DNA from: a virus
Taxonomy: Duplodnaviria; Heunggongvirae; Uroviricota; Caudoviricetes
Length of the DNA: 64,000 bases
IMG/VR virus record: IMGVR_UViG_3300036876_000145
Coordinates: 19,489-83,488 of that record
Direction: 5' to 3' (one strand)
Positions 37,369-37,454 of the stretch are shown here, one piece after another. The notes beneath the pieces were generated by a model. It searched no databases. It saw nothing but the letters and a program-made list of their open reading frames with translations, and was not told the origin of the DNA. The translations under genes were made by a program, and so were the position numbers. The number at the start of each line of letters is the position of its first letter. The first letter of the stretch is position 1.

Positions 37369-37454
37369 GTGGAGTAAACCGTAATTGGCAGCGGGCTGCA
37401 CTGTTAATGCAGTGTCGTAAGACTCTGGGGGTTCGAGACCCTCCTCCACAGCCA
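37369..37454 (+). tRNA. type II (long variable arm) tRNA with a GTT anticodon loop
   Basis: Acceptor tgtggag/ctccaca plus G and CCA; anticodon stem ctgca/tgcag with loop ctGTTaa; 14-nt variable arm gtcgtaagac; T-arm gggggttcgagaccctc. Confidence 0.5.

Follow-up and report, generated by a model that had tools for sequence, protein, structure and literature searches.

Textbooks and reviews limit the class II tRNAs of bacteria, those with a long variable arm, to the Leu, Ser and Tyr tRNAs, plus Sec and a few oddities (PMC7609411, PMC9976931). How, then, is a viral tRNA gene to be understood that joins such an arm to GTT, the anticodon of asparagine? The gene lies on the plus strand of a 64,000-nucleotide (nt) stretch of viral DNA (positions 19,489 to 83,488 of the IMG/VR record IMGVR_UViG_3300036876_000145), and this whole stretch is referred to as the window hereafter. 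The initial annotation regarded the gene either as a mutated tRNA-Tyr or as a tRNA of altered identity for mis- or recoding. The results described below point to another answer: the long-arm tRNA has a real, conserved fold, which is neither an error nor a recent mutation, and its sequence suggests that it is probably a functional tRNA in which a Tyr-type class II body has been recruited to Asn identity.

Fold, conservation and identity of the long-arm tRNA

The gene consists of the following parts (positions in the window; bp, base pairs).

37368..37454, plus strand: class II-shaped tRNA-Asn(GTT), 87 nt (ARAGORN; Rfam tRNA model, 31.8 bits; our own covariance model R1, 93.7 bits)
37368-37374 with 37444-37450, plus strand: acceptor stem, 7 bp, TGTGGAG/CTCCACA, U1:A72 (ARAGORN)
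37375-37395, plus strand: D arm and connector
37396-37412, plus strand: anticodon arm, 5-bp stem, loop CTGTTAA, GTT at 37403-37405
37413-37426, plus strand: variable arm, 14 nt, T-GTC-GTAA-GAC-TCT (3-bp stem, GNRA-type tetraloop, 3-nt tail)
37427-37443, plus strand: T arm, normal, 5-bp stem
37451, plus strand: discriminator G73, followed by the encoded CCA at 37452-37454

The long-arm GTT tRNA that had been annotated is therefore present, with its start at 37368, one base earlier than the 37369 first given. The 7-bp acceptor stem, the structured variable arm of 14 nt and the loop CTGTTAA, all noticed at that stage, reappear in the ARAGORN cloverleaf. The gene belongs to class II in the sense that its variable region is at least 10 nt long and contains a stem-loop. 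The Rfam tRNA model RF00005 accepts it narrowly (31.8 bits against a gathering score of 29), and this low score is caused by the irregular connector between the acceptor and D stems. In the subfamily of the window gene, the D stem is composed of C-C-G:C-G-G plus a T.G or A.G pair and is reached by a 3-4-nt connector, an arrangement also found in the tRNA-Tyr of Streptomyces phages. Promoter and terminator scans around the gene gave no signal above chance.

The long-arm gene is identical in eight independent assemblies from different samples. Eight contigs carrying exact matches to the window proteins are at least 99.1% identical over the array region, with their three tRNAs unchanged, and hence provide no evolutionary depth. 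Diverged relatives, referred to as the peat-soil clade hereafter, were gathered through homologues of the vault-protein gene upstream of the array and through alignment of the HNH endonuclease within it. In about 100 loci, counting that of the window, ARAGORN called 23 long-arm Asn(GTT) genes, which represent 16 distinct sequences. GTT, U1:A72 and G73 are present in all 16 distinct orthologues, and the loop CTGTTAA in 15. When the 16 were aligned, 95.8% of the cells formed standard pairs; the acceptor, anticodon and T stems were paired throughout (100%). Compensatory changes on both sides were found at 18 of the 24 pairs, every helix included, and at all three pairs of the variable stem. None of 500 shuffles attained the observed pairing and covariation values, and no slid register came near them. 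The comparison of GTA with GTT among orthologues, set beforehand as a refutation, gave GTT throughout and no orthologue with GTA. A sequencing or strain mutation of a tRNA-Tyr is thus contradicted by both the identical assemblies and the orthologues. Searches by other routes brought little: an exact 24-mer of the long-arm tRNA had 0 matches in IMG/VR, megablast of the 6-kilobase (kb) array against GenBank phages gave no match, and the open reading frame (ORF) at 38537-39352, used as a protein anchor in IMG/VR, gave a single weak partial match.

As for identity, bacterial tRNA-Asn is recognised by its anticodon and G73, a set that can be transplanted into another tRNA; tRNA-Asn typically has U1:A72, on which, by analogy with tRNA-Gln, the tRNA-dependent amidotransferases of the indirect pathway rely (PMC9976931). 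For Tyr identity, A73 and U35 are critical, and bacteria typically have G1:C72; Leu identity requires A73, and Ser identity rests on the long arm, aided by G73 and the acceptor stem (PMC9976931). Checked against these rules, as the initial annotation had proposed for Tyr, Ser and Leu, the acceptor end and anticodon of the window tRNA fit the Asn set: it has G34, U35 and U36, G73 and U1:A72. From Tyr it departs at three places, since A36 is replaced (GTT), G73 stands for A73 and U1:A72 for G1:C72. Its G73 is also at odds with Leu, and despite this base the geometry of its arm (a 3-bp stem and a 3-nt tail) is not that of tRNA-Ser. The anticodon change is coupled to the changes from A73 to G73 and from G1:C72 to U1:A72. 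Thus, the earlier expectation that a single change from GTT to GTA would restore a standard tRNA-Tyr fails, because the discriminator and the first pair are non-Tyr as well. The same coherent switch to Asn (GUU and G73; PMC9976931) speaks against an altered identity for mis- or recoding: nothing would be recoded, because an Asn anticodon sits on a tRNA of Asn identity.

The coupling was also seen in a larger sample collected by pattern scans. The pattern of the first scans consisted of CTGTTAA, 21-26 nt, GGTTCRA..CC, 9 nt and AGCCA. Such a pattern fixes CTGTTAA, CCA and the T loop, and in the first scans A72-G73 too, so that frequencies in the sample are biased. A second IMG/VR scan left positions 72 and 73 unconstrained: among the 119 matches listed, the long-arm GTT tRNAs have G73 in 116 and A73 in none, and position 72 is A in 92 and C in 27. 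All 34 true Tyr(GTA) tRNAs of phages and arrays (pooled data) have A73, and 31 of the 34 have G1:C72. The opposite chimera, GTA with A72-G73-CCA, gave six pattern matches in all of IMG/VR, just two of them tRNAs; these two (L386 8175-8260 and L388 6411-6496) lie on related IMG/VR contigs of 497 and 372 kb. The arm geometry could be compared over 176 distinct long-arm Asn tRNAs, in which the variable region has a median of 15 nt, with GNRA loops in 109. Their stems are mostly of 3-4 bp and the modal 3′ tail is 3 nt, which is Tyr-like; in the tRNA-Ser of the same elements, the stems are mostly of 4-7 bp and the modal 3′ tail is 1 nt.

Body ancestry, spread and sister forms

The initial annotation had sensed a relation to tRNA-Tyr, and this part of it is well supported, in BLAST, in body identity and in arm geometry. 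The best matches of the window tRNA among GenBank phages are the tRNA-Tyr(GTA) genes of the Streptomyces phages BillNye, Circinus, BRock and Ankus. They have in common with it the unusual D arm GTAAxCCGTAATTGGyAGCGG, the variable arm T-GTC-loop-GAY-TCT and the T arm; acceptor stem, discriminator and third anticodon base differ. The tRNA-Tyr(GUA) of BillNye (NC_042105, 73978-74062) shows the likeness in detail: the TAAxCCGTAATTGG connector and stem, the T arm, G34, U35 and an arm built of 1 nt, a 3-bp stem, a tetraloop and a 3-nt tail. Bacterial and phage tRNA-Tyr are unlike it in having A36, A73 and G1:C72, where the window tRNA has U36, G73 and U1:A72. The other obvious relative lies in the window itself, where the initial annotation had placed it, downstream of the long-arm gene.

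37673..37747, plus strand: canonical class I tRNA-Asn(GTT), 75 nt, U1:A72, G73 (ARAGORN; Rfam, 65.7 bits)

Class I tRNA-Asn(GUU) shares with the long-arm tRNA the loop CUGUUAA, G73, U1:A72 and the codons read; it differs in its 5-nt loop, in the place of which the window tRNA has a 14-nt hairpin arm, and in lacking the class II-type D arm. Over the body (alignment columns 8-80, covering the D, anticodon-stem, variable and T regions), the long-arm tRNA is identical to BillNye tRNA-Tyr at 54 of 70 positions (77%) and to the class I tRNA-Asn of the window at 34 of 70 (49%). The body of the long-arm tRNA is, as judged from these sequences, homologous to that of tRNA-Tyr. A simple mutated tRNA-Tyr, as first suggested, is nevertheless not what is found, since GTT is present in 16 of 16 orthologues and A73 and G1:C72 are changed as well.

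A second long-arm Asn subfamily, unrelated in appearance to that of the window, has its best matches in the tRNA-Tyr of phiKZ-like and Campylobacter phages. The D-arm hallmark of class II, G13.A22, is present in 47 of 124 long Asn tRNAs versus 1 of 65 short (class I) ones; classification by the D arm only was too noisy for naming the source family. When a long Asn tRNA was compared with the Tyr of the same locus, the identity was 0.56-0.74, and Tyr was top-ranked in 14 of 51 loci. The split between Asn and Tyr is therefore old, and a recent duplication of Tyr into long Asn within a locus was rejected on the same values. A nearest-neighbour analysis of the peat-soil clade had given class I Asn as the closest relatives. 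This result was misleading, because Tyr tRNAs were nearly absent from the set and identity is inflated by the common anticodon loop and CCA, and it is superseded by the BLAST and body-only comparisons.

The class II tRNA-Asn family is old and widespread in phages and in bacterial mobile tRNA arrays. At least 119 IMG/VR viral contigs match the pattern, with less than one chance match expected by a rough estimate, and 117 of 119 were confirmed by ARAGORN as tRNA-Asn(GTT) of 83-91 nt; among the matches listed, there are at least 108 distinct sequences, with U1 in all. GTDB, with one genome per species, gave 104 pattern matches, of which 60 were confirmed, mostly within dense tRNA arrays; the carriers of such arrays include Micromonospora and Verrucosispora chromosomes, Mycobacterium hubeiense, Bradyrhizobium and metagenome-assembled genomes of Acidobacteriota. 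The three collections together hold more than 170 distinct family members. One carrier has been cultured: Brevundimonas phage vB_BpoS-Kabachok has an 84-nt gene, annotated 'tRNA-Asn', with the arm C-GTC-GCAA-GAC-TT, and it is the sole annotated Asn tRNA within the surrounding 20 kb. Dense arrays were defined as those with at least 15 tRNAs in the fetched stretch (n = 70). In 60 of them, no Asn tRNA other than the long form is present, which is the strongest indirect argument for a role as an Asn decoder, and a true Tyr(GTA) is also present in 40. The peat-soil clade is arranged otherwise: 22 of the 23 loci with a long Asn hold exactly one long and one short Asn(GTT), and 10 loci hold two short ones and no long one. 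A 76-nt class I Asn occupies the syntenic position in L013 and L020, two loci obtained via the vault-protein gene.

Asparagine is not the only amino acid concerned. The tRNA lengths in the peat-soil clade are bimodal, and long-arm forms were found for Gln(CTG), Arg(ACG), Arg(CCT), Trp(CCA), Lys(TTT) and Ile(TAT). The long-arm Asn, Gln, Trp, Lys and Ile tRNAs retain their own class I acceptor-end features; the long-arm Trp has A1:U72 and G73, and the long-arm Lys and Ile have A73. In the long-arm Arg forms, position 73 varies among A, T and C. Pairs of a long and a short copy are often seen in the arrays listed also for Arg(ACG), Trp, Lys(TTT) and Gln(CTG). In the two data sets selected by Asn, the remaining long-arm forms are mainly Ile(TAT), Lys(TTT, CTT) and Thr(TGT), that is, decoders of ANN codons. 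One sister form, which the initial annotation did not mention, lies in the window between the two Asn genes.

37563..37651, plus strand: class II-shaped tRNA-Gln(CTG), 89 nt, variable arm with a 4-bp stem (ARAGORN; Rfam, 42.4 bits)

It carries the Gln acceptor features of the E. coli type (U1:A72, G2:C71, G3:C70 and G73) and has nine distinct orthologues in the peat-soil clade. BLAST of this gene against GenBank phages gave no match.

Several side observations concern these forms. The D arm of the long-arm Gln, TAGGAAAACCGGCAACCCCA, closely resembles that of phiKZ-like phage tRNA-Tyr. Long-arm Trp(CCA), Arg(ACG), Arg(CCT) and Lys(TTT) of 84-91 nt occur in L010 (18954-19044 and 20962-21047) and L016 (20259-20342), and long-arm Trp, Arg and Lys are also present in L032, L043, L060, L067 and others. 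The same loci (L010, L016, L032 and so on) hold unusually short Leu tRNAs of 75-79 nt. The tRNA-Ile(TAT) is nearly always long (30 long versus 6 short distinct sequences); the long form measures 92-94 nt, with a variable region of about 25 nt (L070 2939, L073 1421 and L090 4214; IMG/VR and genome arrays). In examples from the peat-soil clade, the D arm is a long stem capped by a tetraloop, which recalls the allo-tRNA(UAU) of Mukai et al.

Function and rival explanations

In the reading that we consider probable, the gene yields a working tRNA that is charged with Asn and decodes normally. The class II scaffold (the D arm, the 14-nt hairpin variable arm and the T arm) is homologous to phage tRNA-Tyr, and the identity positions would have been converted to Asn, GUA becoming GUU, A73 becoming G73 and G1:C72 becoming U1:A72. 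Asn is, on this basis, most likely the amino acid attached. Charging would be carried out by asparaginyl-tRNA synthetase (AsnRS), or by a non-discriminating aspartyl-tRNA synthetase together with GatCAB relying on U1:A72, and the long-arm tRNA would then read AAC and AAU as Asn, with no recoding. For the retention of the class II body, we offer a tentative explanation by analogy, which we regard as possible rather than probable: host nucleases tuned to class I tRNA-Asn may bind the long-arm form poorly. AriB of the PARIS system could be such a nuclease, its cut at positions 40/41 lying beside the point where the arm would leave the body. The tRNA-Asn(GUU) is a known PARIS target, and phage T5 variants of tRNA-Asn, -Lys and -Thr neutralise PARIS (PMC12409363). 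Similarly, a phage tRNA-Tyr needs its longer variable loop to neutralise Retron-Eco7 (PMC12673091). The T5 tRNA-Lys, -Thr and -Asn acting against AriB and the SP15 and T5 tRNA-Tyr acting against Retron-Eco7 are like the window tRNA in being structurally altered phage copies of attacked tRNAs. In such anti-immunity tRNAs, however, the anticodon stem carries point changes or an existing arm gains a few nucleotides, whereas the window family has changed its class.

Several points weigh against this account. [quoted passage not shown] The combination of G73 and a long arm also belongs to the identity set of seryl-tRNA synthetase (SerRS), and with G34, U35 and the Tyr-like arm retained, some residual recognition by tyrosyl-tRNA synthetase (TyrRS) is possible. 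The defence idea is drawn by analogy, and the known escapes from PARIS are anticodon-stem point changes with no new arm. The minimum-energy fold of the single sequence fuses the anticodon arm with part of the variable arm; this failure is why covariation was relied upon for the structure. The irregular acceptor/D connector of the window subfamily and its marginal Rfam score count here as well. Finally, the class I Asn copy next to it in the peat-soil clade means that decoding there does not strictly require the long form.

A wider proposal, rather doubtful in our estimate, is that phages and arrays re-issue nuclease-attacked tRNAs in the other structural class, which the nucleases would then fail to fit (a 'body-swap', of which this 'tRNA-Asn-II' would be one case). 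The set so treated would consist mostly of ANN decoders (Asn, Lys, Thr and Ile), with the peat-soil clade contributing Gln, Arg and Trp. These sister cases make the change of structural class testable as a counter-defence, against PARIS, PrrC-like nucleases, Septu and retrons. Should the proposal be true, the long-arm tRNAs would be natural, pre-tested orthogonal scaffolds for engineering.

The class II body of a functional Asn tRNA might instead be a neutral Tyr legacy, tolerated by AsnRS, EF-Tu and the ribosome. The loop of the arm varies freely (GAAA, GTAA, GCAA, TTAC and CTCAC), which argues against a sequence-specific partner of the arm; in addition, the class I Asn at the syntenic site in L013 and L020 and the 10 loci without a long copy mean that the arm is dispensable in some lineages. 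We nevertheless consider this explanation unlikely. The arm stays a base-paired hairpin with compensatory change over very diverged sequences, other tRNA families (Gln, Arg, Trp, Lys, Thr and Ile(TAT)) show the class II shape as well, and the clade repeatedly keeps a long and a short copy with the same anticodon, which looks like a division of labour rather than drift. It is quite improbable that the tRNA does not decode at all and acts as a decoy, sponge or regulator, for instance by soaking up nucleases directed at the variable arm of tRNA-Tyr (Septu, and PtuAB of Retron-Eco7), or in some other role outside translation. Septu and Retron-Eco7 do cleave tRNA-Tyr in its variable loop, phage tRNA-Tyr has been proposed as a decoy or supplement (PMC13096335, PMC12673091), the window tRNA is Tyr-like in body and arm geometry, and the window array contains several aberrant tRNAs. 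A decoy, however, has no need of a coherent Asn set, yet GTT and G73, and mostly U1:A72, are near-universal; CCA is encoded, the acceptor and T stems are intact and covary, and the long form is the sole Asn tRNA in most dense arrays, which cover many other amino acids.

Still less credence is due to a miscoding tRNA, charged by TyrRS or SerRS and putting Tyr or Ser at Asn codons, and we judge it very improbable. The Tyr-type body does keep G34 and U35, Ser identity centres on G73 with a long arm, and serine is attached to allo-tRNAs that have non-Ser anticodons (PMC5389517, PMC7609411). Against this, the Tyr determinants A73 and G1:C72 are replaced in essentially all members, A73 being present in none, the stems of mostly 3-4 bp and the 3-nt tail contrast with the 4-7 bp and 1-nt tail of tRNA-Ser, and a toxic miscoder fits poorly with the role of sole Asn tRNA in full-set arrays. 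In the work of Himeno et al. from 1990, tRNA-Tyr reportedly accepts Ser only when its arm is lengthened in addition to receiving G73, which also counts against miscoding. A recent mutation or sequencing error of tRNA-Tyr, or a decaying pseudogene, has a practically negligible chance of being correct: GTT and GTA are one base apart, and the tRNA scores only marginally with Rfam, but to the eight identical assemblies and the GTT of all 16 orthologues, with compensatory change in all helices, are added the more than 170 distinct family members and the coexistence of Tyr(GTA) in 40 of 70 arrays.

Two known groups of tRNAs also invite comparison with the long-arm Asn. The nematode nev-tRNAs of Hamashima et al. 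are reportedly variable-arm tRNAs that bear a Gly or Ile anticodon and are charged with Leu. They are similar in joining a class II body to the anticodon of a class I family through an anticodon shift; they are, however, eukaryotic, and the Leu identity of the body wins, so that they miscode, whereas the window family has changed its acceptor identity too and no miscoding is expected. The allo-tRNAs likewise have a long arm on anticodons other than those of Leu, Ser and Tyr, G73, an occurrence in soil and peat (Acidobacteria) metagenomes and a link to mobile elements (PMC5389517). Their acceptor/T stems are 8/4 or 9/3, with Sec-like long D and anticodon stems, where the window tRNA is 7/5, and they are Ser-acceptor-like missense or nonsense suppressors (PMC5389517), where the window tRNA has a coherent Asn set. 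An allo-tRNA identity for the window gene was rejected on its 7/5 arrangement, paired to 100% across the orthologues.

As far as found, the long-arm Asn design is undescribed. A text search of two papers on tRNA arrays (PMC4758250, PMC8421152) gave no mention of a long-arm Asn tRNA, and no description of class II-shaped Asn, Gln, Arg or Trp tRNAs in phages or arrays was met in the full-text literature searched, outside which most subscription journals lie. The family extends the Leu/Ser/Tyr/Sec set by a class II tRNA of Asn identity that is both conserved and widespread, and it is a natural example of a complete Tyr-to-Asn identity switch, in which the anticodon, the discriminator and the first pair are changed together. 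It bears on the tolerance of AsnRS, GlnRS, LysRS and other synthetases for body shape, and phage Kabachok on Brevundimonas pondensis provides a cultured system. It also concerns annotation, in which class II-shaped genes are now just 'tRNA-Asn' or score poorly in tRNA searches.

The array, the minus-strand relative and the genome context

ARAGORN found 21 tRNA genes in the window, all on the plus strand. The long-arm Asn belongs to the following array.

36008..40866, plus strand: tRNA array (ARAGORN, Rfam; synteny with related huge-phage contigs)

It comprises Trp, His, four Arg, the long Asn, the long Gln, the class I Asn, an aberrant tRNA, Lys, Phe, an Arg(CCT)-like tRNA, Arg and two Lys, interspersed with small ORFs and an HNH endonuclease (HNH domain at 39422-39967). 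The presence of this endonuclease inside the array recalls SegB in T4 and T6 (PMC13096335), and dense mobile arrays of 20-40 tRNA genes are known from bacteria and mycobacteriophages as tRNA array units (Tran et al. 2016, PMC4758250).

Some members of the array are unusual in themselves. The Arg(CCT)-like tRNA at 40066-40142 (plus strand) scores 36.6 bits with Rfam and is not called by ARAGORN; it has a good acceptor stem (ATCCTCG/CGAGGAT), A73 and CCA, with about 7 nt in the place of the D arm and an 18-nt variable region, and its relatives carry an ordinary long-arm Arg(CCT). Two aberrant tRNA-like genes, at 37952-38022 and 2414-2490 (both plus strand), have 6-nt anticodon loops (ATTAAC and CGCAAG) and acceptor mismatches and are probably decaying copies. 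The tRNA-His(GTG) at 36111-36190 (plus strand) is 80 nt long with an enlarged D loop and gives 31 bits with the Rfam tRNA-Sec model, below the threshold of 47; 8/4 tRNA-His genes in phages were reported by Mukai et al. (PMC5389517). At L010 (19224-19691), L013 (19228-19701) and L020 (18273-18806), an ORF of 155-177 amino acids (aa) with class II synthetase domains of the HisRS type adjoins tRNA-His, and no such short ORF was seen in the window. Directly upstream of tRNA-Trp, there is a weak match to the Rfam Trp_leader (35902-36004, plus strand; 26 bits against a threshold of 41), which overlaps a terminator-like hairpin at 35977-35998.

The initial annotation had also pointed to a related remnant on the minus strand, near 63.8 kb. 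It is real and degenerate.

63733..63812, minus strand: decayed long-arm Asn-like pseudo-tRNA (our own covariance model R1, 31.7 bits)

With the Rfam tRNA model, it scores 24.4 bits, below the gathering score of 29, over model positions 10-63 only, and ARAGORN called no tRNA there. Its D arm and anticodon arm (GCGGA-CTGTTAA-TCCGC) are intact; the variable region of 13 nt has no clear stem, the T stem has one mismatch, the acceptor is unpaired and CCA is missing. The element is a decayed relative of the long-arm Asn, and its nearest relative in the data is the long-arm Asn of another subfamily, at L144. It sits in a 1.2-kb gene-free gap that runs from 63697-64000 of the window onward into L102 (6603-7804). 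This gap has no called genes in an otherwise tightly packed genome, and the pseudo-tRNA is flanked by hairpins. A tRNA fragment of the attP type was considered and rejected: the half that is kept is the 5′ one (the D and anticodon arms), not the 3′ one, and the phage is apparently a huge one of the lytic type.

Exact matches to the window proteins were found in many peatland metagenome assemblies, including Stordalen 'WOOD18' and a JGI sample. The relatives are contigs of 436-894 kb composed of small same-strand genes, and members of the peat-soil clade are listed as viral genomes in IMG/VR. No capsid or terminase gene was seen; from its gene content and the IMG/VR membership, the window would be part of a huge phage. 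Its long ORFs are all on one strand and include an SNF2 helicase, an AAA ATPase, a major-vault-protein homologue, RlaP and HNH endonucleases. The array lies downstream of genes of the RNA-repair type (RlaP and a PNKP fragment), in the order of a PNKP-type HAD fragment, the vault gene, the RlaP nucleotidyltransferase, an HNH gene and then the tRNAs. The order of vault gene, RlaP and array is kept in relatives whose vault proteins are 68-73% identical to that of the window. The major-vault-protein homologue, of 826 aa, has Vault_3 and MVP shoulder domains; the coordinates of this gene group are window 30675-34673 and L002 1173-1406. Cargo unusual for a phage comprises an amino-acid permease of the APC family (41462-42778, plus strand), Ku (49804-50742), an NAD-dependent DNA ligase with a BRCT domain (13226-15322) and a 643-aa OmpA-domain protein (17926-19857).

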